NCBI GenBank assembly: GCA_016934325.1 | Contig: JAFGSV010000028.1 | Location: 556-64,555 of the forward strand | Direction of reading: 5' to 3' | From: Candidatus Aenigmatarchaeota archaeon | Lineage (GTDB): Archaea; Aenigmatarchaeota; Aenigmatarchaeia; QMZP01; JAFGSV01 | DNA length: 64,000 nt | Part shown: piece after piece, positions 12,057 through 43,884 of the stretch | Position numbering within the stretch: position 1 is the first letter of the stretch | Layout of the letters: the number at the start of each line of letters is the position of its first letter | The notes under the pieces: generated by a model | The model's database searches: none | The model's input: only the letters and a program-made list of their open reading frames with translations | What the model was told of the DNA's origin: nothing | Position numbers and translations under genes: made by a program

Positions 12057-13791
12057 AGCCAACCATCCTCGATTCTAGAACTGCTCCCGTTGCGTTTCTG
12101 CGCATGTATCTTCCGCCGTTCACGACGAGAAGATCCTTTATCTCCGCATCCTGGGGAACGTATAGGATTACTTCGCCATCGCCTTTAGCCCTTTGCAGCG
12201 TGAACCTTTCGATGAAAATGTGAGAGCCGTCCTCGCAGTAGATGCTGTTCTCAGCCGTTTCATGAAATACTTTATATGAAGAGCCGTAAAGCTCAAGCGT
12301 CCCCCCGGCACCGATCATGAATGCCGAATTCCCGATTAGCTGAAAGTCATCCGGGACATCGGTTTGTATCAGAGCCCCTCTGGATGTGAATCCTCCTATC
12401 GAATGGCCAAAACTGAGATGTCCCTTCCCAAGGACCACTACATGCCCGTTGAAATTCAACGTTTCGGATTCCGAGTTAAGCCATGTCTCCTTATCCCCAT
12501 CACCAATCACAAGATTGGCATCCAAGGTGAAATAGTTCCTTATCTTGCCTACATTGCCCCAACCCATGAGTTGATCGACATAATGGATATCAAAGAAACC
12601 GCAAGGGTTCTGATCGGTGCATGTTTTTCCATCGGCGAGGACATGTATCGTGTCCGTCACGGGGTCATAGGTAATGCCGCTGGGCATCAAATACAGGACT
12701 TCCATGTCGAATGTCCTGTTGTCCCTGCTTCGCTCTTCGCTCTCGGCATAGACCGTGAGTGAATAATTGCCCACGGAGACTGCCTTGACCCTCCAAGCAA
12801 GGGCAATCGTCTCGTTCTCATCGATTTCCGGTATCGATTTTATGAATTCCTTTTCGCACACCGATTGGCTGCTGCATTGGCTTTCTTGGCTTCCAAAGTC
12901 ACATTCGTCTTCGGAGCGTGTTTGCGGGCAGGCTTCCTTGCACAAGTATTCTTCCAGTATTTCAAGCCCGGAGGGAGATTCGAGTCTGACGTCAACGCCG
13001 GTTGACGCTCCGAAAAGGGACGTGACATAAACATGCACCTCGAATTCCTCCGTTTGGTTTATCACGGAGGGGGCTACGATTTTCTGGATTCTGATTTCCG
13101 GTTCCGTTGCGTTCTGTGTGACGTTTTCTTCCGGAACTCCGATGATTATTTCGGCTTCCTTCCATGACCGATTCAGGTACTCATCATCGTTACCAAGGAA
13201 CTCAGCCCTCACGACGTTGGTCCCATTTCCAAACACGGTGTATATGACCATTTCGCCATCAGCATCCGTATCTTCGGAGGCCAGAATCTCACCGTTGAGG
13301 TACAGATGAATCATCTGTCCGGGTAGAGAAGTGCCATTGTCCAATTGCAGGCGCGCAATTGTCACATTGTTCTTGGGATCAACCTCAACATCAAGGAACG
13401 TGTTTGCCCAGATTTCTATCGTTTTGGTTTTTTCGATTATCTTTACAGATGGGGTACCATCTTGGGTGTTGTTGTCACCCGTCGCGAGAAAATTCCCAGT
13501 GAAACTTGCATTCATGGTCGAGTTCAGAGCGGAGTAAGCGACAACGGAGCCTGCCGCAAGCAACATTAAGATGACCGAAATCGCCAGCTCTGCCTGTCCT
13601 CTGTTATATCTTGATCTCACGGCAAAGAAAATGCTGCACAGGAATGACGCTATGATAATTATGGGAATAAAGTGGGTAATCAGGACGGCAAGAACGGCTG
13701 TTATTAAGGAAAAAATCACGCTAAAAACGTATACTGTGCTCTGGCCTTTCTTCGCTTTCCCGGTTTGGGTGTGATTGCTTTCACTGGGCAT
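12046..13791 (-). CDS. Membrane-anchored surface protein with Ig/CARDB-like domains and two [KR]GQ prepilin-like motifs
   Basis: KKGQSTVYVF + TM, a second TM, RGQAELAISVILMLL + TM, then beta-rich extracellular region with NxT sites and a Cys-rich insert. Confidence 0.75.
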   Translation of the reverse strand: MPSESNHTQTGKAKKGQSTVYVFSVIFSLITAVLAVLITHFIPIIIIASFLCSIFFAVRSRYNRGQAELAISVILMLLAAGSVVAYSALNSTMNASFTGNFLATGDNNTQDGTPSVKIIEKTKTIEIWANTFLDVEVDPKNNVTIARLQLDNGTSLPGQMIHLYLNGEILASEDTDADGEMVIYTVFGNGTNVVRAEFLGNDDEYLNRSWKEAEIIIGVPEENVTQNATEPEIRIQKIVAPSVINQTEEFEVHVYVTSLFGASTGVDVRLESPSGLEILEEYLCKEACPQTRSEDECDFGSQESQCSSQSVCEKEFIKSIPEIDENETIALAWRVKAVSVGNYSLTVYAESEERSRDNRTFDMEVLYLMPSGITYDPVTDTIHVLADGKTCTDQNPCGFFDIHYVDQLMGWGNVGKIRNYFTLDANLVIGDGDKETWLNSESETLNFNGHVVVLGKGHLSFGHSIGGFTSRGALIQTDVPDDFQLIGNSAFMIGAGGTLELYGSSYKVFHETAENSIYCEDGSHIFIERFTLQRAKGDGEVILYVPQDAEIKDLLVVNGGRYMRRNATGAVLESRMVGYVE

Positions 13792-14959
13792 AGCTCACCC
13801 TCACCTTCAATTCGTTCAGACCGAGAGAAGCATCCATATCAGCGATGACCGTTATTGCAGAGGTGCAAGTGAATTTCGGTGCTATTTCATCGCAAATGAA
13901 ATCCATATCCCCTCTCACCAATACCAAGAAATCGGGCAACAGCCACTCAATCATTATGCCCTGGACTCCAACTTCCCCCACATTGCCAACGACCGCGAAC
14001 AATTCGATTTCCTCGCCCCTTGTTATCATGTTCGGTGACAATATGTCAACAACGATTTCTGGTTCTGCGTGCTCTTGAGTGATGTTTTCTGTTATGTTTT
14101 CATCTGTTTCTGTCACGTTTGGTATGGTTATGCGAGTCTCGTTTGTTATCTGCTCTGTCTCGTTCGGAACCGTGACGTTAGTTTCGTTTGCATCAGGGGT
14201 TGTTGCATTCGGAATCGTCAGGTTTGTATCGTTCATGACAGGGACATTCGCATTGGGCGGTGTCAGGTTTGTGTCATTTGAAAAATAAGGAGGAAGTGGG
14301 GGAGGCGCAGTGACGTTCGTTTCATCCGATGTTTCATTTATTATCGGCTCTCTGTCTTCACTGATATCGGGGACGGTGGCGTTTGACCCTGTAAAATTCT
14401 GTCTGCTGTATTCTTCTATGGAATCATGGGTGCTGTCCAACTCCTCTGAGCCGCTGTCAATACCGGGGGTATCGGATTTTCCGTTATCGAATGCATCGCC
14501 AGCCACGTCACCTAACGACCCATCAGGAGTCTTATTCAAAGCGGCAGCCATCCCCGCAAGATTGTTATTGGAATCCGTCATGTTCTGCGCAACAATAACG
14601 GTTGCAGGCACAAGAAGAAGAATCATCATAAGCGCAATCAGCTGCGCCTGTCCCTTCCCGATCTTCCTCGGAACCTCCGCATCCGCCTTCTTCATATCCC
14701 CGTTGTAGCTCTCCCTCAGGTAGCACAGCTTTGCTGCGCCGACTTCCCTCTGGTATATGACCTTAGCTCCGATTAGCTCGTACACGTATTTCGTTATCGT
14801 GTGCCTGTGATGCCCGACGATCTCGGCTATGTCCCTCAGGGTCAGACCTTCCGGATGATTTCTAAGTGCATCTATGATATCTTCCCTCTGATCCACAGAA
14901 TTTGATTTACCGTTCAAATGCGCGCACCTGTGCAACAGTTTATACATTAATGTACACAA
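13781..14959 (-). CDS. Winged-HTH - TM - low-complexity linker - Ig/CARDB-like fusion protein
   Basis: N-terminal IIDALRNHPEGLTLRDIAEIVGHHRHTITKYVYELIGAKVI (wHTH); GKGQAQLIALMMILLLV hydrophobic segment; N/T/E/P-rich NxT stalk; C-terminal beta domain. True start probably downstream of 14959. Confidence 0.8.
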   Translation of the reverse strand: MCTLMYKLLHRCAHLNGKSNSVDQREDIIDALRNHPEGLTLRDIAEIVGHHRHTITKYVYELIGAKVIYQREVGAAKLCYLRESYNGDMKKADAEVPRKIGKGQAQLIALMMILLLVPATVIVAQNMTDSNNNLAGMAAALNKTPDGSLGDVAGDAFDNGKSDTPGIDSGSEELDSTHDSIEEYSRQNFTGSNATVPDISEDREPIINETSDETNVTAPPPLPPYFSNDTNLTPPNANVPVMNDTNLTIPNATTPDANETNVTVPNETEQITNETRITIPNVTETDENITENITQEHAEPEIVVDILSPNMITRGEEIELFAVVGNVGEVGVQGIMIEWLLPDFLVLVRGDMDFICDEIAPKFTCTSAITVIADMDASLGLNELKVRVSYAQ

Positions 14960-15017
14960 CTAATATAGTCAATAACTGTCGAAACTTATATGTTAAAAAG
15001 AATGAGAAAAGCTTAAA

Positions 15018-15494
15018 TTGTCGACCGACAATAGGATACTAATGATGAACTTTCTCAAGTCCCGGAAGATGGACCAGGAGAAGCTTGATTCTGTATCGGA
15101 ACTTGAGAAGATCCGGGAGATCGAGAAGGAGAAATCTGTCAACCAGAGGCTGGAGAGCATAATATTCCAGAAGTTCGAGGAGACGGGCCTCGAGGAGAAG
15201 ATAAACGACATGCACTCCAGGCTCGAGGAGGTCTCTGGCAAGATGGATGAACTGATGTTTTTATACCAGTCGAACAGTCGAGTAAAAACCAACCCCAGCG
15301 TCAGGAAACTGAAGGTCAAGGAAATGGTTAACCTGCTGATACAGCAGCATGGCTCTCTCAGCGCCCCCCAGCTCAGCGATATGATGAACCTGTCGAGGAC
15401 CCGGTGCAGCGAATATCTGAAGGAGATGGAGCTCAAAGGCGTTCTGGTATCCGAGCTGAAGTGTCGGAAAAAATTCTATAAAATTCGACATTGA
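15018..15494 (+). CDS. Coiled-coil + C-terminal winged-HTH transcription regulator
   Basis: LSAPQLSDMMNLSRTRCSEYLKEMELKGVL wHTH; divergent from the HTH-TM gene across a short AT-rich spacer. Confidence 0.75.
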   Translation: MSTDNRILMMNFLKSRKMDQEKLDSVSELEKIREIEKEKSVNQRLESIIFQKFEETGLEEKINDMHSRLEEVSGKMDELMFLYQSNSRVKTNPSVRKLKVKEMVNLLIQQHGSLSAPQLSDMMNLSRTRCSEYLKEMELKGVLVSELKCRKKFYKIRH

Positions 15495-15571: not shown

Positions 15572-16255
15572 ATGAAAGTATCTGTAATAACAACGGCTTA
15601 TGATGAAGAAAAGAACATAACCCCTTTACATGAAAGGATAAAAAAAGCGATGAATGGTATAGACTACGAGGTTGTTGCTGTTGATGATGGCTCCACTGAC
15701 AATACCTACAATGAACTCAGAGGAATAAGGGATCGAAGAGTTAAGATAATAAGGATGAATGAACACAGGGGGAAATGCTTTGCATTGCATATGGGAATTA
15801 GCAAATCAAGCGGGGAAATTATTGCAACCATTGATGCCGACGGGCAGAACGATCCAGGGGACATACCAGGAATGGTTAAGGAGCTCGAAAAAGGATATGA
15901 TTGCATATGCGGATGGAGGTATCACAGAAAAGACACCATGGTAAAAAGAATCTCATCAAAGATGGGGAACTTTTTCAACAACATGTTCATGGACTTGAAT
16001 CTCCACGATAATAACTGCCCCGTAAAGGTCTTCAAAAGGCATTGCGTTGCAAGAATAAGGTATTTCGACAACTTCCATAGATTCATCCCAATATTGATAA
16101 AAATTCAGGGATTCAAGATAAGAGAGTACAAGGTTAGGCACTATCCACGCATACATGGGGTTTCAAAATACGGAATACGTAACAGGATATTTGGAAACAT
16201 TAAAACAATCTTCATTGTTAAATTAAAACACAAGGAGCTGATAAAATGCAACTGA
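15572..16255 (+). CDS. GT2 polyprenol-phosphate glycosyltransferase (DPM1/ArnC-like)
   Basis: VDDGSTDNT, TIDADGQNDP (DxD), YHRKD and HRFIP motifs. Confidence 0.9.
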   Translation: MKVSVITTAYDEEKNITPLHERIKKAMNGIDYEVVAVDDGSTDNTYNELRGIRDRRVKIIRMNEHRGKCFALHMGISKSSGEIIATIDADGQNDPGDIPGMVKELEKGYDCICGWRYHRKDTMVKRISSKMGNFFNNMFMDLNLHDNNCPVKVFKRHCVARIRYFDNFHRFIPILIKIQGFKIREYKVRHYPRIHGVSKYGIRNRIFGNIKTIFIVKLKHKELIKCN

Positions 16256-16527
16256 GTTTCTGGTTGGTTTTCGGACTTGCGGCCCAGGGGTGTTTCTTCC
16301 TTAGGTTCTTCATTCAATGGATTGCATCTGAGAAAAGGGGGAGAAGCGTGATTCCTATACATTTCTGGTATTTGAGCCTGCTTGGTGGCCTGGGATTATT
16401 GATTTATTCCATACATATCAGGGACATCGTATTTATCACAGGTCAGGGTCTTGGGATACTAATATACACCAGGAATCTTATCCTTATACACGGGGAGAAG
16501 AATGCTAAAAAGCATGGACTTGGATAG
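16246..16527 (+). CDS. LAB_N (lipid-A-disaccharide synthase N-terminal-like) small 3-TM protein
   Basis: GLAAQGCFFLRFFIQWIASEKRGRSVIPIHFWYLSLLGG...DIVFITGQ...IYTRNL matches the family pattern. Confidence 0.85.
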   Translation: MQLSFWLVFGLAAQGCFFLRFFIQWIASEKRGRSVIPIHFWYLSLLGGLGLLIYSIHIRDIVFITGQGLGILIYTRNLILIHGEKNAKKHGLG

Positions 16528-17950
16528 GATTGCGATTCTGTTTTCAGCTTTCATATTTTTGGTTTATCTTTCTACTTTGAGCATATCCCTGGATGAAGAA
16601 GACGCTGTCCATTTTGCCCTGGGGCTCAAGGAGTTCAATGTTTCAAAGTATCAGCCACACCCTCCCGGATTTCCTGTTTACATCGGATTGGGTATGTTGT
16701 TCAACGCAGGCCTTAAAAACGAGCTGTTAAGCCTGACATGCATGGGCGCCTTGTTTGGCGCCTTGTCCGTCTTTGTCTTCTATATGCTGGCCAGGGAAAT
16801 GCTTGAAAGGGAAATCGCATTGGCCTCGTCTGTCTTGATGGCTTTTACCCCGCTCTTCTGGCTAAGCAGCCTGAAGGCAATGTCTGATATCCCCGCGCTG
16901 TTCTTCACACTGGCTTCAATGCTTTTCATTTACAAGTACATCAAATATAACAAACCGGGTTATTTTTACACAGGTGCTTTGTTGGCGGGAATCTCAACGG
17001 GTGTTAGAATTCATACGCTTTTTATTCTGTTACCTGCATTGGTTTACAGTGCATACATGCATAAGAAAGGCGTCCGGATCAGGAATAAGGGTTTTCTGCT
17101 TTTCGTTATCGCAATGCTAGCATGGTTGTTGCCGGTGATGTTAATAACAGGGATTCCGGAATATCTCTCATCCGCTGTAAGCCAGTTCGGGTTCAGGGTC
17201 GGCAAACCCCATATATCAATAATAGGCACTGAATTGACCCCAAACTATCTGGCCCTTAAATTGTTCAGCTCCTTTTATTATTTTTTGCTTGGTGGTTATG
17301 GCATCAATTTGGCCAGCCTGGGTTTATTCAGCACTGTCCTCTTATTTTTCATGGCAGCCCTGGCAATTCTTTTTCTTAAAAACGTCAACCTAAGGGACAG
17401 AAGGGTGCTCTTTCTTGTCTCGGGGGTGTTAATTTACCTGCCTGTGATATTCATCCTGCTTCCTCCTTTTAGTCCCAGGTATCTTCTAGTCCTTATTCCA
17501 CTGCTTTCTTTGATTTTTACAAAAGCTTTGTGGAATCTAAAAAAACCAAATCAAAGATACCCGTTGTTTGGCCTTCTCATCCTGCTTGTTTTGACCCATT
17601 CAATTTTCCTGGCACTTGAGATAAGCACCAAATCCGCTCCCCCTGTTCAGTTAATCAATTATGTTAATGAAAATTATGGCTCTTATGGCTCAGAGGGGAT
17701 TATCATTTTAAACGGTTTTGCCAGCAAGTACTTTACATATTACCACACAGACTTGACAAGGTTATCCGAAACGGAAACTGATTGCGAAAGGATAAAGAAA
17801 ATTATCTCAGAGAATAAAACCGTTCTCTCCATAGCGGGGGATAAGAACTGTGAAGGACTGCAACTTGAGCTAGTTTCCACCTTTAAGCGCGACCCGAGGG
17901 TTCATATAAAGCGCAGCATGATCAACCTGTATGAATTCTTGTTGGAATGA
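16502..17950 (+). CDS. GT-C multi-TM glycosyltransferase (PMT_2/DUF2723-like)
   Basis: DEEDAVHF acidic loop, QPHPPGFPVY motif, many TM segments, PRYLLVLIP. Confidence 0.85.
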   Translation: MLKSMDLDRIAILFSAFIFLVYLSTLSISLDEEDAVHFALGLKEFNVSKYQPHPPGFPVYIGLGMLFNAGLKNELLSLTCMGALFGALSVFVFYMLAREMLEREIALASSVLMAFTPLFWLSSLKAMSDIPALFFTLASMLFIYKYIKYNKPGYFYTGALLAGISTGVRIHTLFILLPALVYSAYMHKKGVRIRNKGFLLFVIAMLAWLLPVMLITGIPEYLSSAVSQFGFRVGKPHISIIGTELTPNYLALKLFSSFYYFLLGGYGINLASLGLFSTVLLFFMAALAILFLKNVNLRDRRVLFLVSGVLIYLPVIFILLPPFSPRYLLVLIPLLSLIFTKALWNLKKPNQRYPLFGLLILLVLTHSIFLALEISTKSAPPVQLINYVNENYGSYGSEGIIILNGFASKYFTYYHTDLTRLSETETDCERIKKIISENKTVLSIAGDKNCEGLQLELVSTFKRDPRVHIKRSMINLYEFLLE

Positions 17951-18076
17951 TTATACTGCAGTGGATTAAGTAAGATATGAATTTTTACTTTTTATGAGTA
18001 AAATGCATAATTATTTAAACATTTTTGGTAAATGTTGGAATTGCTATATTAGGTAAGAGATACGAAATATGATAAT

Positions 18077-21000
18077 ATGGTAATCAGGCATCTCTTAATT
18101 TTAGGTCTACTACTTGCTTTTTTACCCACTGCTGCAGCTTCTGGTTATCCCAATGTTACCCTAGTTTCACCAGCAAATGGAAATGCGACCACTTTGGATA
18201 ACATAACCTTTATTTGCAATGCCTCTGACGATGAAAACGTCAACAGAATATCCTTTTACCATGATATGAATGGTACGTTTGGGTTATACGACACAAAGAG
18301 GATAATGGAGCTGGATAAGGATTCTAACACCACACTTCTATGCCGATTCGATGATTCATATATATGTGAGGGTGGTGAGGAGGGAACCAATACTTCTACA
18401 GAATTGGTGGCCAGCAAGTTCTTTAAGGGTGTTATGATAAATGATTCTGATACCCTGATATATCAGACTTCCAATAACATACTGTATAATCAGGGAACCA
18501 TAGAATTCTGGCTCAAGATTGGCCTTGATTCCTCTTATAACATTGCACGGCTTTTTTCAGCAGGCAGTGAGTTACAAATATACGCTGATGACGGTGACCT
18601 CTGTTTTAAATTTCATGATGGAAGTATTAATGAAATAACTGCATATAGCGATATTTCCACGTGGAGCGAGGGAGAATGGCACCACTTAGCTGGTATATGG
18701 GATGTATATAATTTGGTTGGCAGCGGTAAAATAATTGACCTGTTTCTTGACGGATCCAATGATTCTGTTCTATACTCAGGTGATTTCTATTCTTATGGCA
18801 CTTTCGGGGATTACATGTATGTTGGAAGCGATGAATATGGAAACGATCAAGCTAATTCCACTTTTGACGAATTCAGGATATCCGACATACCAAGAACACC
18901 AGCCGAGATAAATGCCTCTTATATGAAAGGAGCGGGCAACCACAGCAAAGAATCCGTAAACTGGACAATTACCAATATTCCTGATGGGACGTATACATGG
19001 AATTGTCTGGTTTGGGACAATGAGTCCCTGAAGTCTTGGAACAGTGAGAACTATACTTTTAGTATCGATACAACTCCTCCGACATTTAACGAGGTGAATC
19101 TCTCCCCAAGTTCAGCTGATGATATTGACCCGGGAGTAACGATAAATGTCACAGCCAATATAACAGATTTCGGCAATGTGAGTGCTGCGATATTCCAATA
19201 TAAATATGACGTTGAATGGATGAACGTGACGATGGACAGCATAAGTGATGATTCATGGAATGCGTCGTTTACCACTATATCTTCTGAAAGGGTATATTAT
19301 TACAAGATATGGTCAAATGACACCTTTGGGCACTCCAATACGTCTCAAACCTTCAGCGTGAATGTCAGCTGGGATTACTCATGGAATAGGAACCCTTCTC
19401 TTATTGATGCATATGGACTTGTGAATAGCATAAGCGACGTAGGGATAATAACCGTGAACAATACAGGAGACGACACTCTCATAATCACCCTAACGGATGA
19501 CTGGCGGCCATTGCTGAATGTTTACTATAACACCACGGAACAGTTCGCAATAGCCGGGAAGAGCGTAATAGACATCAACGTCACTGCCGAATATGCCAGT
19601 TTGGATAGCGCAAAGAACATGACAATAACGATGTCCGCTGAGCCCTCCGCCCCTGAAAAAACGGCATCTCCAACTTCATTGAATACCATAGCAACTATGA
19701 ATTCCTATAGCGGCGGGCCATATCCTCATGTGAACATTGCAATGTGTCCTGTTTCAGTGACGCAGAGCACAACAGGTGTAAACCTGAGTGCAACTGTTAA
19801 AAACATAGGCAACGAAACTGCTGAGGATGTCTGGTTCAACTGGACACTCCCTTATGGATGGGCAAACACCAGCGGAAACGTGAACGTGTACATCGGCAAT
19901 GTCACTTCCAAGTCAACAAACACAAGCGACCTGGTTGTGAAAGTAAGTTCATCCGCCCCAAGCGGGATATCGGCTGTGTGCGTAAATGCCAGTGGTAAAG
20001 GGAACCTGAGCAGTTCTGACTGTGAATTCGTACAGGTGAGTTGCTCGAATTCGGATGGTGTCTGTGGGGCGGGTTGCACCTACTTAACAGATGGCAACTG
20101 CGAAGCGCCCAGCAATGGCGGAGGTGAAACCACATACATCGGCATCGGAGCTGTCATAATCGAAGAGCCCAAATTAGAGATCTCATTGCCGGAAAGGATA
20201 GACCTCATAAAAGGCGAGTCTGGTAATCTCAGCATAGAAGTCACGAATCCCGTGGAAAGAACAAACCTTACAGGGATAACGGTGCAAATAACCGGGTACC
20301 CCGCAACCCTGGTGGAAATGATGCCGTCCGCAATCAGCAACATCTCATTCAACCAGACAAGAATCTTCAGATTGACGATCGGCGTTCCGCCCTACATCGA
20401 AGAGAAGGATTACTTCGTGAGCGTGACAGTATTGGCAACGGGAACGTACAGTGGTGGCACGAAATATCTTGAGAAATCAGGAAAAATGATTTTCGCCGTT
20501 CACGGCGTGGTTGAAAGTGCGACTATAGAGGCTATTGAGAATGCGGAGCGTTCACTGGAAAGGATGAGGGAATATAATTTCACTTATATTCGACTATTGG
20601 ATATGCTCGATGACGCAAAGCGGGCTTATGCTGGTCTGAATTTTGACTTGGCAAGAGAACTGGCTCAAAGAGTCGTGGAACTGGAAGAGACCGCTTTCAG
20701 GATTTTCTCATTGATTGGCCAGTTTGAAAAGGATACGGAAGAGGCCGAACAGTACGGGATGGATATCGAGGAAGCTAAAAGGATGCGTGAATTGGCAATA
20801 TCCGCCTTCCAGAGAGGGGACTATGAAAGGGCGGAGGACAGGATTACGGCTGCAGTAACGGCTTTCAAGCTGGAGACGAAGATGCTTCTGCCTCTGAAAA
20901 AGATGATCATGGAATACTGGCCGCACATGTTGTCTTCCATCATTCTCTTATCCATACTTGGCTTTTTTGCTAAGAGAAGGTTACAGATCAGGACTGTGGA

Positions 21001-22180
21001 GAAGAAGCTGAAAAAACTGAGAGATGCCAAACAGTCAGTAATCGAGCTTGTGAAAAGTGGGGAGGATGAGTATTTCAACAAAGGGAAAATATCAAAGCTT
21101 GATTACACGATTAACAGGGAAAATTATGAGAAGAGGCTTGCCGAGCTCGGTGCCGAAGAGCTTAAGCTTATCACTAAGGCGGCATTAGCAAGGGGGCGGG
21201 GCAGAGAGGATAGCCTGCTCAGGGAGAAGGCTATCATCGAAAAAAGGCTGAAAGATGCGCAACTGGAATATTTCGTGTTAGGGAAAAAGTGCAAAGGTGA
21301 TTTCAAGAGGACCATCAAAGAGCTGCAATCAGAGCTCGCGGAGATTGAAAAGAATCTATCTAAAATAAGGAAACCGACAAGGATTAAGGGCACGGTTGTG
21401 TTATTTTCATTGCTCGGAATCGTGTTGGTCTTGTCGAATCTGTCCATATCGCAGGCCCTTGAAAACGCCACGGCTGAAAGTGCGGGGGTATACATTGAAC
21501 AGGCTGAGGTAGTTGTTGGTGACATGAAGAACGCCGGATTGGGAACCGAAAGGGCAAACCACACGCTGGAGAACGCCAGGATTCTCCTTTCAAGAGGAGA
21601 TTATGAACTGGCATTGACCACGGCAAGGTATGTACCGGTTATTATGCAAAAGGGGCTCATAGTTGACACCATGATTGACGACACCGAATTGAAAATTCAC
21701 GAGCTTTCCTCCAGGGACTTCGATGTTTCAAAAGCCGAGGGCTTATTCCTCGAAGGTGTCAAGGAGTTCGAGCTTGAGAACTACGAAGGTGCGGAAACGC
21801 TGCTGGGCCAGGCGATGGACATGCTGGATAAAATGGAATCGGAGTATGCGCTTTCCAAGGCTGCGACATGGAACCCCTTCCCTGCCTTCGTTCAGGCGAT
21901 AAATGAAAACTGGATTTTGATATCGGTCTCTGTATTCTTACTAACATCCGTATCTTCTTTGCTTTTCCTTAAAATCGTGAAGATAAAAAAAGTCAGAAAG
22001 ATTGAAAGCCTTGAAATGGAGTTGAAGAGCTTGAGAAATTCGATAATAAAGACGCAGGAAGAGTATTTTCACAGGAAATGCCTAAGCAAGAAGGACTATG
22101 AAATTAGAATGGAAGAATATAAGAGCGGGCTTGGCAGGGTGATGGAAGCATTAGCAACTGAAAGAGGGGGGAAGGGCTGA
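18077..22180 (+). CDS. Large membrane protein: signal peptide, LamG-like, Ig/CARDB-like, helical and SHOCT-like modules
   Basis: GTIEFWLK...EWHHLAGIWD...FDEFRISDIPRT (LamG); CGAGCTYLTDGNC motif; three internal TM segments; three YF-x3-K-x-SK-x-DY-like motifs. Confidence 0.8.
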   Translation: MVIRHLLILGLLLAFLPTAAASGYPNVTLVSPANGNATTLDNITFICNASDDENVNRISFYHDMNGTFGLYDTKRIMELDKDSNTTLLCRFDDSYICEGGEEGTNTSTELVASKFFKGVMINDSDTLIYQTSNNILYNQGTIEFWLKIGLDSSYNIARLFSAGSELQIYADDGDLCFKFHDGSINEITAYSDISTWSEGEWHHLAGIWDVYNLVGSGKIIDLFLDGSNDSVLYSGDFYSYGTFGDYMYVGSDEYGNDQANSTFDEFRISDIPRTPAEINASYMKGAGNHSKESVNWTITNIPDGTYTWNCLVWDNESLKSWNSENYTFSIDTTPPTFNEVNLSPSSADDIDPGVTINVTANITDFGNVSAAIFQYKYDVEWMNVTMDSISDDSWNASFTTISSERVYYYKIWSNDTFGHSNTSQTFSVNVSWDYSWNRNPSLIDAYGLVNSISDVGIITVNNTGDDTLIITLTDDWRPLLNVYYNTTEQFAIAGKSVIDINVTAEYASLDSAKNMTITMSAEPSAPEKTASPTSLNTIATMNSYSGGPYPHVNIAMCPVSVTQSTTGVNLSATVKNIGNETAEDVWFNWTLPYGWANTSGNVNVYIGNVTSKSTNTSDLVVKVSSSAPSGISAVCVNASGKGNLSSSDCEFVQVSCSNSDGVCGAGCTYLTDGNCEAPSNGGGETTYIGIGAVIIEEPKLEISLPERIDLIKGESGNLSIEVTNPVERTNLTGITVQITGYPATLVEMMPSAISNISFNQTRIFRLTIGVPPYIEEKDYFVSVTVLATGTYSGGTKYLEKSGKMIFAVHGVVESATIEAIENAERSLERMREYNFTYIRLLDMLDDAKRAYAGLNFDLARELAQRVVELEETAFRIFSLIGQFEKDTEEAEQYGMDIEEAKRMRELAISAFQRGDYERAEDRITAAVTAFKLETKMLLPLKKMIMEYWPHMLSSIILLSILGFFAKRRLQIRTVEKKLKKLRDAKQSVIELVKSGEDEYFNKGKISKLDYTINRENYEKRLAELGAEELKLITKAALARGRGREDSLLREKAIIEKRLKDAQLEYFVLGKKCKGDFKRTIKELQSELAEIEKNLSKIRKPTRIKGTVVLFSLLGIVLVLSNLSISQALENATAESAGVYIEQAEVVVGDMKNAGLGTERANHTLENARILLSRGDYELALTTARYVPVIMQKGLIVDTMIDDTELKIHELSSRDFDVSKAEGLFLEGVKEFELENYEGAETLLGQAMDMLDKMESEYALSKAATWNPFPAFVQAINENWILISVSVFLLTSVSSLLFLKIVKIKKVRKIESLEMELKSLRNSIIKTQEEYFHRKCLSKKDYEIRMEEYKSGLGRVMEALATERGGKG

Positions 22181-22225: not shown

Positions 22226-22792
22226 ATGGAGATGATTATTAATATGCAGCAATTTGCCGGCCTAAAAAAGGTCATTGAAAAGGAGTTGGTCAATAATAAA
22301 ATACTGCTGGTTTCTTTCAAGAGCAAAGACTATAGGGAGGGGTTGAAAAATCTCTTGGAATTCTCATTGAACAAGTACAAAAAGAGCTGCTATGTTACGC
22401 TGAACGACCCCCATGAGAGCATTGTGAGGAAATTGAATGAGCGGCAATTATCGAAAATGTTCTTCATAGACTGTGTCACATGTTCCATTAAGACACCGAA
22501 GCAAGAGGAAAACGTGGTTTTTGTTTCTTCTCCGAGGGCACTGACTGAAATATCCATTGCCATCAAGAAAGCCATTGATATGGGTGGGATGGAATCTTTG
22601 ATACTGGATTCCATATCCGCGATGCTGGTGTATGAGCAATCCCTGAATGTCATGAAATTCGTTCATAAGCAGGTTCTTGCATTAAGGGAGGCTAATCTGA
22701 TTTGCTACTTGATAATCATGCGGGAAGATGTGAGCGAGGAGCTTATGAAAGACCTTGCGATGTTCGTTGACAAGATTGTAGAGGCGGATTGA
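22226..22792 (+). CDS. Inactive KaiC/RecA-like domain protein (no Walker A)
   Basis: CYVTLNDP, FFIDCVT, LILDSISAML, FVDKIVE; no GxxxxGKT. Confidence 0.7.
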   Translation: MEMIINMQQFAGLKKVIEKELVNNKILLVSFKSKDYREGLKNLLEFSLNKYKKSCYVTLNDPHESIVRKLNERQLSKMFFIDCVTCSIKTPKQEENVVFVSSPRALTEISIAIKKAIDMGGMESLILDSISAMLVYEQSLNVMKFVHKQVLALREANLICYLIIMREDVSEELMKDLAMFVDKIVEAD

Positions 22793-22954
22793 TGTATCAA
22801 TTTCATGTTGGGAGGAATGTGGGGAAGATTTCGATGCACAATAATCACAATGGCTTGCATGATTATAATAGCATTGAAGTCGTGTATCTTTTATGATCAC
22901 TGAAAGAACCGCCTTCGGATGGAATTATATCGAAGATGTCTCAGGTTGAAAAAA

Positions 22955-25162
22955 ATGAAGATATACCTGAAATTGATATTAGGCTTCATATCGGTCCTAC
23001 TGCTATTGGCCACATTGGCCATGTATTCTATTTCTGTCATGAGGGAGAACACTGTTCAGGCCCTTGGAACCGACTCCGCCTTCTCTGTTAAGGAAACTTT
23101 GAACATTATCAACGATAGAATCTTTGAAAACATTGATATCTCGGAGCTGAAAGCGCAGGAAAGCCTTATCCGCCACGCCCTTGAACAATCGAATAGCGAT
23201 TTCGATGAGTTGGATGATATTGATGCATATATCGATGAGATCGACAGCGAATGGGTTCTGACACCAGAAGGCGAAGAGACTGCGTTCATGAAGCGATTGA
23301 TCGAAAACAACATTTCTGATAACCTGAGAGATCAATTCGCGGATTTCTGGAACAAGAAACGCAACTATACGGTCTTCGAGGAGGTCTTCATCACGAACAA
23401 ATATGGGGCGAATGTAGCTCAGACTCAAAGGACCACCGATTATTACCAAGCGGATGAAGAATGGTGGGAAAAAGCCAAAGAGGACGGCATCTATATCAGC
23501 AGTGCCGAATTCGGCGAAAGCGTGGGGAAATATTCCATAAGCATAGGAATGAGGATTGATGATGAGAAGGGGGAATTCATAGGCGTGATGAAGGCGGTCA
23601 TCAACGTCGTGGAAATAATGAAGGAGGCCGAGATTGCGACCGGGCAATATCAGACTTCAATATTCTATGTGACCACAAAAGACGGCAGTCTGGTGTTCTC
23701 ATCAAAGAGCTTCAAACCCAACGATGATTTGTCCCAGGAAGGTTATTTTAAAAGAGTCCAAAGCGACAACGGGTTCTTCATCGACAGCATAGACGGCAAT
23801 GAGGAACTGGTGACATATGCCCATTCAGAGGACTTCAGGGGGCATGAGGAGTTGGATTTCGTGCTCATCGTCAGTTACGATACCGATGAGGTGCTTAGGC
23901 CGGTCTATATTATGAGAAATAACCTCATCATGATATCAATAGCTTTGATAATATCGGGTATCCTGGTTGCTCTCTTCATCTCCCGTTCAATATCGATGCC
24001 CATATCCCATTTGAGAAACGTCGTCACGGAGATTGGAAAGGGAAGACTTAATACAAGAATCATAGTGGAATCGAATGATGAGATAGGTGATCTCGCAACG
24101 GCCTTTAGAACGATGACCGAGGACCTGAAAAAATCACGCGACGAGATTAAAAGGCACACGAAGGAACTGGAGAACAAAGTTGACGCAAGAACGAAGGGAC
24201 TTGGCACGAAGGTCGAGGAGCTGACAGCGACCAAGACCGCTGTCCTGAACATGATGGAGGATATGGACGAGGCTAATAAACAGCTCGTAAAAACCCAGCA
24301 TGAACTGAAGGATAGCTTAAATGAGTTGAAGGAAATGGATGTGAAGAAGGATCAGTTTATTTCAATCGCAGCGCACGAACTCAAGACACCGCTGACATCC
24401 ATCCATGGATTCTCGCAGCTGCTCCAAGACAAGAAAGTTGCAGACAACATTGCCGAGAGAGCAAAATACCTGCGCATTATGGATCACGAAACCAGAAGGC
24501 TGGCAAAACTTGTGAATGACATACTTGACCTGTCGAGGATAGATCTCGGAACCGTTAAGCTCAATTCAGAGCCTGTTGATGTGAAAGAACTGCTGCAGGG
24601 GGATATAAAAGGGGAGATGAAAATGCAGATTGAGAAGAAGGGGCTTAAATCTGAATTTATTGCCGAACCGGGATTGACAACCATCGTAACTGACAAGGAA
24701 AAGCTGACAGAAATTCTAATCAACCTCATTACCAATGCCATGAAGTACACCAACAAGGGAAAAATAACGGTGAATGTTTTCAAGAAAGATAAAGATGTGC
24801 ATTTTGTGGTTAAGGACACGGGAATTGGGATATCGAAAGAGAATTTGGAAAAGGTATTCGAAAGGTTCTATCAGGTGGATTCTTCTTACACAAGAGAATA
24901 TCGTGGGGTTGGCCTTGGTCTGGCTCTCTGCAAAGAGTTCGTGGCGTTGCTTGGAGGTAAAATCTGGGTCAAGAGCGAACTCGGCAAGGGTAGTGAATTC
25001 CATTTTTCACTGCCCATTAAAGGTGCCCCAGCCCAGGATATTAGGAAGGAGGAATTGGGAGCGGAAGTGAATCTTGAATCTCAAAAAGCGAAGAAAATGA
25101 CAGAAAGCGCGGAAATGCTGAGAGGAAATAGAATCGTCCGATCTACCCAACAATCTTCTTAA
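22955..25162 (+). CDS. Membrane sensor histidine kinase (Cache-like - HAMP - HisKA - HATPase_c)
   Basis: Two TMs around a DYYQADEEWW Cache-like domain; SNDEIGDLA HAMP; AAHELKTPL H-box; NLITNAMKYT, VKDTGIGI and GVGLGLAL boxes. Confidence 0.95.
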   Translation: MKIYLKLILGFISVLLLLATLAMYSISVMRENTVQALGTDSAFSVKETLNIINDRIFENIDISELKAQESLIRHALEQSNSDFDELDDIDAYIDEIDSEWVLTPEGEETAFMKRLIENNISDNLRDQFADFWNKKRNYTVFEEVFITNKYGANVAQTQRTTDYYQADEEWWEKAKEDGIYISSAEFGESVGKYSISIGMRIDDEKGEFIGVMKAVINVVEIMKEAEIATGQYQTSIFYVTTKDGSLVFSSKSFKPNDDLSQEGYFKRVQSDNGFFIDSIDGNEELVTYAHSEDFRGHEELDFVLIVSYDTDEVLRPVYIMRNNLIMISIALIISGILVALFISRSISMPISHLRNVVTEIGKGRLNTRIIVESNDEIGDLATAFRTMTEDLKKSRDEIKRHTKELENKVDARTKGLGTKVEELTATKTAVLNMMEDMDEANKQLVKTQHELKDSLNELKEMDVKKDQFISIAAHELKTPLTSIHGFSQLLQDKKVADNIAERAKYLRIMDHETRRLAKLVNDILDLSRIDLGTVKLNSEPVDVKELLQGDIKGEMKMQIEKKGLKSEFIAEPGLTTIVTDKEKLTEILINLITNAMKYTNKGKITVNVFKKDKDVHFVVKDTGIGISKENLEKVFERFYQVDSSYTREYRGVGLGLALCKEFVALLGGKIWVKSELGKGSEFHFSLPIKGAPAQDIRKEELGAEVNLESQKAKKMTESAEMLRGNRIVRSTQQSS

Positions 25163-25511
25163 CCCTCTTCACGAGGTCTTGGTTTTCGAATGGTTTTGTG
25201 ATGTAATCCAGGACGTTCATCTTTTCCAGGACGCCTTTTCCGGCCTCTGAAAATTTCGCCACTGTGAGGAATGCGACTTTCAAGTCCTTTGTAGCAGGAT
25301 TTTGCCTGATGCTTTCGCATACTTCCCTTCCGCTCATCCCAGGCATCATCATGTCAAGCAGGATGAGGTCGGGTTTCACCGTTTTCAGTTTCTTCAGGCA
25401 CTCCTCTCCGCTTATAGATGTAATCACTTCGTACTTTTCGTGTTCAAGGATGGCCCTAACAAGCTCAATCAAGCTTTCCTCATCATCCACAACCATAATT
25501 TTTTTGGCCAT
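25143..25511 (-). CDS. Stand-alone response regulator receiver (REC)
   Basis: IMVVDDE, LILLDMMMPGMSG, YITKPF. Confidence 0.95.
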   Translation of the reverse strand: MAKKIMVVDDEESLIELVRAILEHEKYEVITSISGEECLKKLKTVKPDLILLDMMMPGMSGREVCESIRQNPATKDLKVAFLTVAKFSEAGKGVLEKMNVLDYITKPFENQDLVKRVKKIVG

Positions 25512-25564
25512 ATTATATCAATGCGATTCAAACATTAAATATATATCTATTATAACTCAACGGC

Positions 25565-26146
25565 CTAATACTCGATGGACTTATTGTTCGCAGCGCTGTT
25601 CAAATCAATTGCCATATCAGCAAACATGACGAGGTCCTTTACTAGCTTTTCGTTTTCCTCGACCGGTATGATGCCGTGTTTCAAGACTAAATACAGGATT
25701 TTATTTTCTTGCCTTTCTCCCGACAGCAAATCATGGGTGAACCGCACTATTTTCGATGTTCCCTGATACTCCAGCATCGCGGTTATGGAGTCAAAAACGA
25801 CCACTCTGCATTTTTTATCCCTTATCGCCTTTGATATCTCAGATCTTATCACCGGCAGGTTTGCCGGTGAATTGATAAAAGTGCAATTTTCGTTTGATTG
25901 CATTTCTATGTAATGTGAACTCAAAACATCGAGGAAATGGAATCTTGACAAGTCGATATCCCTATTCTTCATATCGCTATATATGTCCTCATAGGGTCTG
26001 CTCAAGCATATGTAACATATGTTATTGGTTTTATCAATAGATTTTACGATCTCCTCAACCCTATCCATGCATACTTCTTCCTCGAGCAGCAGTAGCAGGA
26101 ACTGGCTATTCTCTATAACCTTAGGCAAATCTGCGGCCCGAAACAT
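25565..26146 (-). CDS. Inactive KaiC/RecA-like domain protein (paralog of 22226-22792)
   Basis: CYICLSRPY, FHFLDVLS, VVFDSITAML, FADMAID; no Walker A. Confidence 0.7.
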   Translation of the reverse strand: MFRAADLPKVIENSQFLLLLLEEEVCMDRVEEIVKSIDKTNNICYICLSRPYEDIYSDMKNRDIDLSRFHFLDVLSSHYIEMQSNENCTFINSPANLPVIRSEISKAIRDKKCRVVVFDSITAMLEYQGTSKIVRFTHDLLSGERQENKILYLVLKHGIIPVEENEKLVKDLVMFADMAIDLNSAANNKSIEY

Positions 26147-31267: not shown

Positions 31268-31942
31268 CTATATGATTCTGGTTTCTGTCAGACGTATGTC
31301 TTTGTTGTTTATTACCAATTCGTGTGGCAGTTTGGCGTCGAAATTCGTGTATCTCATCTTATGCACGATCAGCGACCTCATGGGCTTCTCCTCGAGTTCG
31401 AGAAAAATAAGCTGTATTACACCATCGCACTCGAACGATTCATGGCCACTTGAGTCAAGCTTCTCATCATTGTCGGTTTCGCACAGCAGAAGCGAAGAAC
31501 CCAGCTTTTTCAGGGAGTCCAAGAGTTCAACCAGATAGGCCCTGTACGATTTGTTGTTTTCGGAGAACATGAGCAGCTTATTTACGTTATCAATGACTAT
31601 TCTGTCGATTTTCGGATAGCTGGCTATTATATCTATGAATCTCTTCATGCTCACGTTGCTCTGTGCCATGGGAATGTGCTCAATTGCAAGGTTCTCGCCA
31701 AGATATTTCTTAACTTCAAGCAGGGACTCCACCGATTCGCAAGCCTTGATCAACTCTTCCTTGCTCTCGTTCAGCGTTATATAGCAGCATTTTTCCTTTT
31801 TCTTGGCACCGTCGAGGATGAATTTCATGCCAACCAGCGTCTTCCCTGTTCCCGGGCCTCCGGATAGAAGCATTACGGCATTCTCCGGGAAGCCACCTGA
31901 AAGCATCTTGTCCAGTTTCTTCAGACCGGTTGAAACCCTCAT
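31268..31942 (-). CDS. KaiC/RAD55-like ATPase
   Basis: STGLKKLDKMLSGG, GGPGTGKT, CDGVIQL, HKMRYT; NE in place of the EE pair. Confidence 0.88.
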   Translation of the reverse strand: MRVSTGLKKLDKMLSGGFPENAVMLLSGGPGTGKTLVGMKFILDGAKKKEKCCYITLNESKEELIKACESVESLLEVKKYLGENLAIEHIPMAQSNVSMKRFIDIIASYPKIDRIVIDNVNKLLMFSENNKSYRAYLVELLDSLKKLGSSLLLCETDNDEKLDSSGHESFECDGVIQLIFLELEEKPMRSLIVHKMRYTNFDAKLPHELVINNKDIRLTETRII

Positions 31943-35304: not shown

Positions 35305-37143
35305 TCAAAGCAGCACCCGCAGGTTCTTGCTCAGGTATGCCTGCAGGGACTTCCTTCCCTGCTCCGACCTCTTCCTGATCTTCACCCTGCCGTTCCTGCC
35401 GGCTATTGCCGAGAAGAGGAAATCATCTCCGCTGTATATGTCGAGCGTCTTTCCGCTGAGCCTGGGGTCCATCATCAGATAGAAATTCGCTCCGGTCTCT
35501 TCCCAGTCGAAGCGCGTCTCGCCCTTCATGGTCGCTTCCTTGGGCTCGACGGATATCTTCATTCCGAGCTCACGCTCGATCATCTCTATGTTCTTTCCCT
35601 TCTTTCCTATCATCTTGGCGATGACGTCGTTCCTGACCTTCACCTCTATCCTGTTCTCCCCGAGGAACTTGATGTCCATCCCCGGGTCCCATTTCCTGAG
35701 CTTGGCGTAGATCGATTCCCTGGCAAGCTTCTTCACGCCCGAGACCTTCTCGCCGGCAGCCGCTTCCTGCACCGGGACTATGACGTTCTCCTCGCCGTAC
35801 GTGTATATCTCGTACTTGAGCTCTTTCGACTCGAAATCCCGGACCTCGACCACCGGCCTAGTGAGGTCGTCGTCGTTCATCCCGGTCGGGCACTTTACTG
35901 TCAGGGATACCGAGAACACCTCCTCGATCCTGCCATCCTTGATGTAGATGACCGTATCGATGATATGCGGTATCGTGCCCAGCTCGAGCCTGCCGATGAA
36001 CCTCTGGATGGCAGACACGGGGCCCGTTGAATGCACCACCCCTATCATGCCGACCCCCGCGAGGCGCATGTCGCCGAAGACCATGAAGTCCTTGGTCTTC
36101 CTGACCTCGTCGAATATGGTGTAGTCGGGCCTGACGAGGAGAAGCAGCTCCGCCGTCTTCTCCCAATCCCCCTCGAGAGGGGCGTATTCGGTCACTTCGG
36201 GCCCGACCTGGAGGTCCCTTGGCTGCTCGAACGTCTTGACGATCTTCTTATGGGACACGAGGTAATCGGCAATGCTCGCGGCGAACGTTGACTTTCCGGA
36301 TCCCGGTGGTCCCGCGATCAGGACGCCGCTGGAATTCTCGACTATGTTCCTCTCCAGCTGCTTGTGCAGGTTGTAGTCCGAGAGCCTCACCTTCGCTATC
36401 GGCCTGACGGCCGTAAGCTCAAGGGCGTCCGAGAAAGGCGGCTTCGTGATCGCTATCCTGTAGTCGCCGAGCTGGATCACCATGGCTCCCTGCTTGCTGA
36501 TCTCGATGAACGAGTCCTGGTCCGTCCTCGCCTTGGACATGACCTCGTCGATCAATCCCTTTATCTCATCCTCCGTGCATTTGGTATCCCTTATGCACAC
36601 AAGCTCCACGCTGCCCGGTCTTCCTTTCTTGGCCATGGGCCTGACCCCGGTCTTGAGGTGGACCGACTGCGTGTCGGGTGTGAAGAAGCTTTCCAGCCTG
36701 ACCCTCTTCAGCTGAGGCTTCGGTATGTGCATCACATCGATGCCCTCCGCCTCGGCAACAAGTGCCTGGACATAATCAGATGTCAGCAGGATTCCCTTCT
36801 CGTTCTTCGCGACGTCCCTTATCAGGGCGTCTATCCTGCCTTTCTTGGCTAGCTGAATCTCTTCCATGGTGGGCCTCTCGCCCACGAACTCAATCGTCAC
36901 TCCATTCTTCTCACCGACTTCCCTGATCTTCTTGATCTCGTCAAGGCCTGAGAAGCCTATGTCTCTGTGCCGCGAGGCCTGCGCCTGCAGCTCATCAATG
37001 ACGGCCATCGGTATCACTACCATGGCCCCCTTGATCTTTCCTTCGTTTATCAGTCCGGAGACCGTCCCCTTGATCAGGACGCTGGTGTCCGGAACTATCT
37101 TTCTAGCGTTCAAATCTTTCGCGCTAATTTCTTTTTCTATCAT
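35305..37143 (-). CDS. PINc/VapC - ATPase - KH protein (PINA family)
   Basis: VPDTSVLI PIN; AGPPGSGKST; DEVRKTKDF; MIGKKGKNI KH. Confidence 0.92.
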   Translation of the reverse strand: MIEKEISAKDLNARKIVPDTSVLIKGTVSGLINEGKIKGAMVVIPMAVIDELQAQASRHRDIGFSGLDEIKKIREVGEKNGVTIEFVGERPTMEEIQLAKKGRIDALIRDVAKNEKGILLTSDYVQALVAEAEGIDVMHIPKPQLKRVRLESFFTPDTQSVHLKTGVRPMAKKGRPGSVELVCIRDTKCTEDEIKGLIDEVMSKARTDQDSFIEISKQGAMVIQLGDYRIAITKPPFSDALELTAVRPIAKVRLSDYNLHKQLERNIVENSSGVLIAGPPGSGKSTFAASIADYLVSHKKIVKTFEQPRDLQVGPEVTEYAPLEGDWEKTAELLLLVRPDYTIFDEVRKTKDFMVFGDMRLAGVGMIGVVHSTGPVSAIQRFIGRLELGTIPHIIDTVIYIKDGRIEEVFSVSLTVKCPTGMNDDDLTRPVVEVRDFESKELKYEIYTYGEENVIVPVQEAAAGEKVSGVKKLARESIYAKLRKWDPGMDIKFLGENRIEVKVRNDVIAKMIGKKGKNIEMIERELGMKISVEPKEATMKGETRFDWEETGANFYLMMDPRLSGKTLDIYSGDDFLFSAIAGRNGRVKIRKRSEQGRKSLQAYLSKNLRVLL

Positions 37144-37519
37144 ATTTTTAACTCCTTTATCGTAATCATGAATTCTCATGCATTATCGATCTTTTTTTAA
37201 TTTTATTTTTTCGATACGCCAATCATACCTTTCTTGCCATTTCGTTGCCATTCCTGAATCTTCTTGATTGTTCGTCGTCCAGCATCCAGCTACGTTAGCA
37301 CATCGTTTCAACCTGGTTACCCTGCCTAGAAGGAGCAGTGTTTTCCAGTTCTATTCTATATGGATGTCTGCAAAGCTTTAAAAAGCTTTCCCTGTGTATT
37401 TGAGCGCGCTGCTGCTATAAATTTTCCGCTTTTATCCCGTCCGAAGACCGGCTTCCGCAAAAAGATTTTGCTGGTAAAAAATTTCAAAAAGATTTTAATA
37501 CGCTCAACAATAATTCACT

Positions 37520-38653: not shown

Positions 38654-38780
38654 ATGCGGGAACACTGATAAAATTCTGGTGGCCTTATATACGCAAATGC
38701 TTCATCAATTCATTTATAATGTAATGATATATCGAGAGCAGGCTAATAGTTGAAGCCTACTTGGAGGTTAACGGAAGGCT

Positions 38781-39371
38781 GTGATGCCCATGGAAGATAA
38801 GAGGCTGCCAGATGTGCTGAAGAAGCTGGCCAGGGGCCCCCAGATAATCACGCTGAAGGACGCCGCGATCATTTCCGCATTCACCGGCATGTCGCCGGGC
38901 GACATCGTCGTGGACGCGGGGTCGGGGTCGGGCTTCCTCGCCATATACATGGGAAACCTGGTGAGGCCTTCGGGAAAGGTGATATCCTATGAAAGGCGCC
39001 CGGACTTCGCGAAGCTCGCGCAAGGGAACGTGAATAAGGCCGGCCTTGAAGGCTACGTGACCATCAAGGAGAAGGACATCTACGAGGGGATTGATGAACA
39101 CGACGTGGATGTCATAACCCTGGACCTGCCGGAGCCTTGGAACGCGGTCGAGCATTCCGTGCGGGCCCTGAAAGACAGGGGCTTCCTGGTGTCTTACGTC
39201 CCGACCGTGGAGCAGGTGAGGCGATTCGCCTCGCAATGCGAAAAATCCGGGCTGAAACACGTGAAGACGGTCGAATGCTGCGTGAGGGAGATGGTCCTGC
39301 ACGAAAGGGGCACCAGGCCCCAGATAAAGGGCATCATGCACACCGGTTACATTACATTCGTCAGGAAGTGA
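38781..39371 (+). CDS. trmI: tRNA (adenine-N1)-methyltransferase TrmI/Trm61
   Basis: RGPQIITLKD, DAGSGSG, LDLPEPW, YVPTVEQV, HTGYI. Confidence 0.92.
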   Translation: MMPMEDKRLPDVLKKLARGPQIITLKDAAIISAFTGMSPGDIVVDAGSGSGFLAIYMGNLVRPSGKVISYERRPDFAKLAQGNVNKAGLEGYVTIKEKDIYEGIDEHDVDVITLDLPEPWNAVEHSVRALKDRGFLVSYVPTVEQVRRFASQCEKSGLKHVKTVECCVREMVLHERGTRPQIKGIMHTGYITFVRK

Positions 39372-40689: not shown

Positions 40690-40744
40690 ACCGATCACCT
40701 TTATATTTGTTTTTCGGTGTTTAAGTTCTTACGGACATGCTAGC

Positions 40745-40966
40745 TCAAAGGCAGTCGCGCAATCCGACCACCCTATACACATCTCCGGATTTTATAGGGG
40801 TTCCGTCAACCCTATCAAAACCGACCGTAACATCTGGGTATTCCGGCATGGCGCCGGCAATCCCAAAACACTCTGACATGGTTATGTATCTTCTTTCAAT
40901 CCTGTCGTATCCGACGATTGGGTCATCGGGAGATGCTTCGCGCCTGAAAAGGATATCCTTCCTCAT
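40745..40966 (-). CDS. Hypothetical 73-aa protein
   Basis: Strong GGAGGTGA SD; start overlaps the AbrB stop (ATGA). Confidence 0.6.
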   Translation of the reverse strand: MRKDILFRREASPDDPIVGYDRIERRYITMSECFGIAGAMPEYPDVTVGFDRVDGTPIKSGDVYRVVGLRDCL

Positions 40967-43880: not shown

Positions 43881-43884
43881 ACCT

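Follow-up and report, generated by a model that had tools for sequence, protein, structure and literature searches.

Several regulatory domains are held at a membrane and freed by membrane-embedded proteases, SREBP by S2P, RseA by RseP and Notch by presenilin, and presenilins and prepilin peptidases are both GxGD-type aspartyl proteases. In Sulfolobus the archaellum has membrane-bound regulators, ArnR and ArnR1, and ArnR has C-terminal transmembrane (TM) segments and is not known to have a class III-like site. The bacterial proteins ToxR, CadC and TcpP combine an N-terminal cytoplasmic winged helix-turn-helix (wHTH), a single TM helix and an extracytoplasmic C-terminal domain, and CadC is reported (PMC11484849) to be activated by proteolysis. 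In modular type IV pilins such as PilB of Streptococcus sanguinis the class III helix bears an extra module. Here we describe the gene of a 392-residue protein in a 64,000-nucleotide stretch of a Candidatus Aenigmatarchaeota genome (contig JAFGSV010000028.1; the whole stretch is called the window), the first gene of its operon, in which these parts come together. The wHTH, the class III-like signal and the immunoglobulin (Ig)-like domain on a stalk are each known, but their combination was absent from the literature searched. The combination is that of a folded DNA-binding domain in the position of a prepilin-type leader, at the head of operons for giant surface proteins in DPANN archaea.

The protein consists of a wHTH, a flexible linker, a class III-signal-like site with its helix, a stalk rich in N-x-S/T sequons and an Ig-like domain. 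Apart from the linker, these parts had been named in the first-pass annotation of the sequence, and the structure model, the sequon count and the distribution of charges bear them out. In the AlphaFold2 model, built on an alignment of 48 sequences, residues 22-81 form the three helices and two strands of a wHTH, with block-mean values of the predicted local distance difference test (pLDDT) of 86-96, and of 76 for block 81-90. The linker (residues 82-101) varies in length and sequence among homologues, and the helix that follows (residues 102-120, block-mean pLDDT 70-74) begins precisely at K102-G103-Q104. Residues 121-300 are without secondary structure and hold all 18 sequons, while the beta-sandwich of residues 301-392, with pLDDT mostly above 90, was matched by Foldseek against the PDB to TRAP-beta, macroglobulin and CARDB domains; some homologues of the protein carry the Pfam domain NEW3 (PF10633). 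Five lysine or arginine residues lie in residues 86-103 and none in residues 121-140, and because of this asymmetry around the TM helix the wHTH and the site are predicted to be cytoplasmic and the stalk outside (N-in, C-out). The open reading frame (ORF) has three candidate starts, a TTG, an ATG at residue 5 and that of the database form P0001 (378 aa, from residue 15), so that its true start is uncertain by at most 14 residues. The same annotation had placed the gene at the head of an overlapping operon that ends in a giant surface gene, and this also stands: it overlaps the gene of a 581-residue protein, which in turn overlaps the giant open frame.

The nature of the wHTH is less easily settled from family models. 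Among the Foldseek matches of the N-terminal domain in the PDB is the MarR-family protein MepR, and the Pfam HTH matches were all below threshold (MarR_2 with 19.6 bits against a cut-off of 27, IclR with 19.0 against 22, HTH_23 and HTH_11). No OmpR/PhoB/ToxR-type DNA-binding domain was matched in Pfam at E values up to 0.1, the NCBIfam scan of the 392-residue protein gave no match, and no curated family came out of Pfam or NCBIfam when the protein, its C-terminal part, the 581-residue partner and the short forms described below were scanned. The assignment therefore rests on the model and on conservation within the family rather than on a curated family; in a 45-row alignment restricted to sequences with the site, H51 R52 H53 T54 and K57 Y58 are among the invariant columns.

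How, then, does this protein compare with the systems mentioned above? It shares with ToxR, CadC and TcpP the order of its parts; here the wHTH is MarR/IclR-like, the host is an archaeon, the outer part is a glycosylated stalk with an Ig ectodomain, and the gene is linked to a giant surface gene. With ArnR and ArnR1, to which it can be likened by description only, it has in common that an archaeal, membrane-anchored HTH regulator is linked to a surface structure. Unlike the cuts in SREBP, RseA and Notch, a cut here would lie at the membrane-cytoplasm boundary of a signal peptide and would probably be constitutive and not triggered by a signal. As in modular pilins, giant ectodomains follow the same helix in relatives of the protein, but here the extra module lies on the leader side, the part that is removed in all known pilins. 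No use of a prepilin peptidase to release a tethered regulator was found in the literature searched.

There is also a close likeness to the class III signals of Methanococcus pilins with EppA-type sites. As described in PMC10191384, the last residue of a class III leader is Gly or Ala, 20-25 mainly hydrophobic residues come directly after it and Glu is frequent at +5; cleavage takes place at the cytoplasmic face, and prepilin peptidases need a small residue, of the G/A/S kind, at -1. A 2013 review (PMC4187195) gives the EpdA site as R-G/Q-I and states that the Gln at +1 matters for cleavage by EppA. In our protein G103 is the small residue that ends the leader, Q104 is the Gln at +1, Q104-Q125 holds about 21 hydrophobic residues, basic residues lie upstream, the site is predicted to be cytoplasmic and the genome has a peptidase. 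The first-pass annotation had read K-G-Q as a class III signal, and to this extent the reading is supported. We collected 91 homologues of 215-686 aa by a word-indexed search, all of which share the wHTH or the TM-stalk-Ig part, and x-[G/A/S]-Q-x-Q stands at the start of the hydrophobic segment in 53 of them, with G at -1 in 48, A in 3 and S in 2, and Q at +3 in all. As this pattern itself demanded G, A or S, we recounted with Q-x-Q alone, and the preceding residue was G, A or S in 52 of 52 cases in this set and G or S in 17 of 17 among independent, newly found representatives. Judged by these counts, the motif is under selection.

We also asked how pilin-like genes of the same organism begin. 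Its genome (1.24 Mb, 79% complete) encodes one A24 prepilin peptidase, of 288 aa (G000 contig 7, 1093-1959), with the invariant GDGD and upstream Asp residues, and several secretion ATPases and TadC-like genes lie on other contigs. The named relatives of the 392-residue gene and of the peptidase belong to Aenigmatarchaeota, plus one Micrarchaeota locus. Q-x-Q at the start of the first TM helix was found in only 3 of the genome's 300 TM-bearing ORFs, namely our gene, one evident chance case and a pilin-like gene on contig 30, and such rarity indicates that the motif in our gene is more than chance. The gene on contig 30 adjoins two TadC-like genes, a secretion ATPase and three more pilin-like genes, and a sensible start gives it a leader that ends in R-K-A before Q-V-Q. 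About 14 ORFs have [G/A/S]-Q directly before a hydrophobic stretch in their first 20 residues, some of them resembling ordinary or lipoprotein signals, and under stricter criteria 7 of 47 N-terminal candidates showed [K/R]-[G/A/S]/Q. In sequence, then, the motif of the 392-residue protein matches that of pilin-like genes in the genome's type IV pilus locus. The pilin-signal models PF04021 and PF07790 of Pfam gave no match to the protein at E values up to 10, a test with little power here because the pilus-locus genes of this genome also fail it or stay below threshold. A complex prediction with the alignment of the A24 peptidase and substrate residues 84-132 scored 0.00, the fold of the partner being uncertain, and is given no weight on either side.

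In relatives the two halves of the protein occur apart. Six homologues without the wHTH have only 11-21 residues ahead of this K-G/Q-A-Q helix, so that they do have the short leader of known class III proteins, and five of the six nest among HTH-bearing, site-bearing proteins in a quick tree, which was built from the TM helix and the last 100 residues. At two such loci (L038 and L039) the short-leader form is followed by the 581-like and giant genes, and upstream of it stops in all frames and a divergent neighbour about 60-100 nt away leave no room for an HTH. Of the genomes of these two loci, G002 has no copy of the wHTH and G001 has only a 31%-identical match. Since the site is kept in forms without the wHTH, it appears to serve the TM protein itself. 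The wHTH is likewise found alone: free wHTH genes of 66 aa (L025) and 70 aa (L027) abut giant genes with ordinary signal peptides, a free 78-aa wHTH (L030) is separated by a MinD-like ATPase gene from a surface-protein gene nearby, and the gene of a 168-aa tandem-wHTH protein without a TM helix (L022, 242-748) is found directly upstream of surface-protein genes and overlaps one. Finally, at L016, L018 and L020 giants of at least 2,860 to 3,570 aa begin with the whole wHTH-site-TM module. An exhaustive phmmer search with residues 1-131 yielded 286 representative clusters, and the best 150 representatives were classified as 33 with a TM helix and the site (3 of them giants), 45 with a TM helix and no site (9 of more than 600 aa) and 72 without a TM helix (59 of at most 135 aa). 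The wHTH thus occurs in three ways at the loci read, free, plainly tethered and tethered via a prepilin-like site, and at every one of them it adjoins or is fused to surface-protein genes, mostly giant ones. The occurrence of HTH and TM parts as separate genes had been named beforehand as a finding that would speak against a processed fusion, and such genes do exist (L025, L027 and L030 on one side, L038 and L039 on the other). Because they correspond to both of the proposed cleavage products and share the operon context, we do not take their separation as a refutation.

The motif is not confined to the first gene of the operon. The 581-residue partner has K-G/Q-S-T at its N-terminus (residues 15-19, G16/Q17), then a two-TM hairpin, a second site, R-G/Q-A-E (G65/Q66), before the third TM helix, and after this a sequon-rich ectodomain. 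The layout is repeated at L015 and L038, and at L021 with a weaker N-terminal site. Among eight relatives (five database proteins including the window's own, and those of L015, L021 and L038) all have G-Q at the start of the third TM helix, seven have Glu at +3, and most keep the N-terminal K-[G/S]-Q. Two neighbouring genes therefore share the motif, which stands at the start of three helices on the side facing the cytoplasm, a recurrence that fits recognition by one enzyme and equally fits a role in helix packing. A later start of the partner gene, just before the second site, was rejected because the hairpin is conserved at the protein level; it is kept at L015, L021 and L038 and in four of the five database proteins (the window's own and three others), the fifth beginning inside it. 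Cuts at 16/17 and 65/66, if both were made, would free a membrane hairpin peptide of 49 aa.

We hypothesize that prepilin-type cleavage releases the wHTH. This is the best reading of the sequences compared, although a tentative one, and it is favoured by the G/A/S-Q signature, the match to the pilus locus, the persistence of the site in forms without the wHTH, the existence of both products as separate proteins and the presence of the peptidase. The sole A24 prepilin peptidase found in the genome would cut between G103 and Q104 at the cytoplasmic face. One product, a wHTH protein about 100 aa long, would correspond to the free wHTH of 66-78 aa upstream of giant genes in relatives; the other, a stalk-Ig protein held by its helix and beginning with Gln, would correspond to the short-leader forms. 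The freed wHTH would act on transcription, probably that of its own operon or of the divergent neighbour, and the output of the regulator would thereby be coupled to the insertion of the surface complex's first subunit into the membrane and to its processing. Could this be a general device, in which a DPANN prepilin peptidase frees a DNA-binding domain from the membrane anchor of a giant adhesin complex, one regulator for each surface subunit inserted, as a prokaryotic counterpart of Notch and presenilin, with the sites of the partner freeing a small two-TM peptide? We hold this wider proposal to be slightly more doubtful than the cleavage itself.

A number of observations weigh against cleavage. 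Known class III leaders are short hydrophilic peptides of variable length, as PMC4187195 and PMC10191384 describe them, whereas the leader here would have 103 residues and include a folded domain; no folded-domain leader of about 100 aa was found in the literature searched (supplementary tables not covered). The residue at +5 is Ile and not the acidic residue that is frequent in class III signals and typical of EppA substrates, an absence already pointed out in the first-pass annotation, and Lys at -2 is found in only 33 of the 53 site-bearing homologues. The remaining 38 of the 91 homologues have no site, with basic residues directly against the TM helix, and among the best 150 representatives the same is true of the site in 45 of the 78 TM-bearing proteins. 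Tethered forms without a site are thus frequent, and the tether alone is evidently functional. In the quick tree, 36 of these 38 homologues fall into one well-supported clade and the site label needs a single change, a clustering that is partly circular because the TM columns were used to build the tree. No pilus-assembly gene was found within the window. The second site of the partner follows a two-TM hairpin, an odd place for the cleavage of a signal peptide, and it may be that the G-Q-x-[Q/E] motif instead serves helix-helix packing. The further claim that a pilin-like subunit would be left behind is not borne out by the model, which shows no lollipop fold but a bare helix, about 180 disordered residues and a distant, separate Ig domain; a surface protein anchored by a class III signal would be a more fitting name for the anchored product than a polymerising pilin.

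The divergent promoter also counts on this side. In the intergenic region of 94-124 nt, a near-perfect palindrome of 16 bp sits between a TATA-like element and the likely ATG (15042) of the divergent gene, and a related element, TCGACAG, lies at 14976-14982, just downstream of the operon's own TATA-like element. The core of the palindrome is found at nine related loci (L015-L019, L021 with three copies, L038, L039 and L045; L015 and L041 are counted once), with the spacing of L021 repeated at L045, and the whole genome contains only two copies (expected number 0.6). It is equally conserved at L038 and L039, where the first gene lacks the wHTH, and for that reason its likeliest binder is the divergent HTH_24 protein; from this comparison of promoters the palindrome is probably an operator of that protein, and the idea that it serves the tethered wHTH was down-weighted. 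The divergent gene is syntenic at L015-L019 and L039, and at L038 only a matching upstream reading frame was seen. That the two wHTH proteins are paralogues was considered and dropped, as BLASTP between them gave no alignment. The HTH_24 protein also has a weak match in NCBIfam to the C-terminal region of CdvB.

The main rival to cleavage is an uncleaved one-component regulator of the ToxR/CadC kind, in which the tethered wHTH binds DNA or is held inactive, the stalk and Ig domain sense or dock the giant surface protein, and G-Q-x-Q serves helix packing or forms an interface, as in the TM helix of the partner. The topology is the same, with a cytoplasmic wHTH, one TM helix and an outside domain; the site-less tethered forms are common, as the counts above show, and the wHTH is equally conserved in them; the same module begins the giants of L016, L018 and L020; and the similar G-Q-A-E helix start of the partner fits helix pairing. 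Such a tether, however, leaves unexplained why G, A or S invariably precedes Q-x-Q, why the motif is found on pilin-like genes of the pilus locus and why it is kept in forms that have no wHTH, and the domain itself is not of the OmpR/ToxR type. On balance we think it somewhat less likely than cleavage. The motif is left equally unexplained by regulated intramembrane proteolysis, in which a site-2 metalloprotease or a rhomboid would cut the TM helix after an event in the ectodomain. The N-in, C-out orientation is that of RseA and SREBP, a helix-breaking proline (P118) is invariant within the TM helix in the 45-row alignment, although it is not specific, and S-E-S/T inside the TM helices of the site-less homologues would allow one mechanism to serve the whole family. 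The genome encodes one M50 protease and three rhomboids, a presence that is again not specific; nothing links them specifically to the locus, and no candidate for a site-1 protease was identified. We consider this reading improbable.

It is also conceivable that the wHTH is not a transcription factor but a cytoplasmic docking domain of the surface complex, cleaved or uncleaved, which binds for instance the divergent HTH_24 protein or, non-specifically, nucleic acid. In relatives the wHTH is fused straight to giant adhesin-like proteins, in the two genomes examined the operon does without it (with the reservation of the 31%-identical match in G001), and the conserved palindrome does not track its presence. 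Yet small free wHTH proteins make up 59 of the best 150 representatives, and the three such loci that were read lie by surface-protein genes. A free wHTH directly upstream of such genes occupies the usual place of a dedicated regulator, which argues against docking, as does the resemblance of the fold to MarR-type DNA binders in the Foldseek comparison. Of the four readings, docking seems to us the least probable.

If cleavage is true, prepilin peptidases would gain a role in signalling, and archaea would offer a case of tethered transcription factor release in which both site and protease are defined. A dedicated feedback regulator would belong to the giant surface proteins through which DPANN archaea are thought to contact their hosts, and the class III signal would have its first folded, functional 'leader peptide'. 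Predictors of the FlaFind and PilFind type look only near the N-terminus and would miss such proteins. If the protein is not cleaved, the family would be a widespread, unannotated class of archaeal ToxR-like tethered regulators, with 286 representative clusters and linked to giant genes. The coordinates of all features are collected in the table.

Table. Features of the operon and its divergent promoter, in positions of the window; residue numbers are those of the 392-aa ORF.
Feature	Position	Strand	Evidence or remark
Whole gene, 392 aa, first of operon	13781..14959	(-)	Starts: TTG 14959, ATG 14947, database form 14917
wHTH, predicted cytoplasmic, residues 22-81	14717..14896	(-)	AlphaFold2, family conservation, Foldseek
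Flexible basic linker, residues 82-101	14657..14716	(-)	Low AlphaFold2 confidence
Class III-signal-like site K102-G103/Q104-A105-Q106, proposed scissile bond G103/Q104	14642..14656	(-)	Homologue alignment
Hydrophobic membrane helix Q104-Q125	14585..14650	(-)	Strongly conserved, P118 invariant
Disordered stalk, predicted extracellular, residues 126-300	14060..14584	(-)	AlphaFold2 and sequons
C-terminal Ig-like beta-sandwich (CARDB / macroglobulin / TRAP-beta-like), residues 301-392	13784..14059	(-)	AlphaFold2, Foldseek
Second operon gene, 581 aa	12046..13791	(-)	Overlaps 392-aa gene by 11 nt (13781-13791)
Giant surface-protein gene, >4,000 aa	3..12062	(-)	Ordinary-looking N-terminal signal; runs off the window
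Conserved palindrome, core TGTCG-N-TCGACA, probable operator	15017..15032		Promoter comparison
Divergent coiled-coil gene with C-terminal HTH_24 wHTH, likely start ATG 15042	15018..15494	(+)	Pfam, synteny

Some further genes deserve mention. On contig 30 of genome G000, at 35644-45774 (L032), proteins of 638 and 609 aa have short leaders that end in K-A before Q-A-E-F-A-L, and two small pilin-like genes of the G/Q type lie close to them; this may be a second locus of surface proteins with class III signals. The window itself holds a canonical archaeal pilin-like gene at 45448-45879(+), with a 6-aa leader ending in K-G before I-T-P-I-I-A and a sub-threshold match to Pilin_N. Next to the operon, a glycosylation and surface cluster at 15572-22180(+) encodes a GT2 glycosyltransferase, a LAB_N membrane protein, a PMT_2 mannosyltransferase-like protein and a surface protein of 1,367 aa with Big_7, Laminin_G_3 and NEW3-like domains. 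Genes for several KaiC-like or DUF7504 ATPases, a dCache-HAMP histidine kinase and a single-domain response regulator are found at 22226-26146, 31268-31942 and 47485-48102, and the abstract of Makarova et al. (2016) puts forward ATPases of the KaiC family as candidate regulators of pili. The PIN-ATPase-KH protein at 35305-37179(-) is of the MJ1533 type, which Makarova et al. (2016) do not count among the components of secretion systems. The G+C content is 0.37-0.49 in 12000-34000 against 0.52-0.59 in most intervals on both flanks, the giant gene itself being of high G+C, and the low-G+C stretch may be an island or mark a compositional boundary inside the operon.

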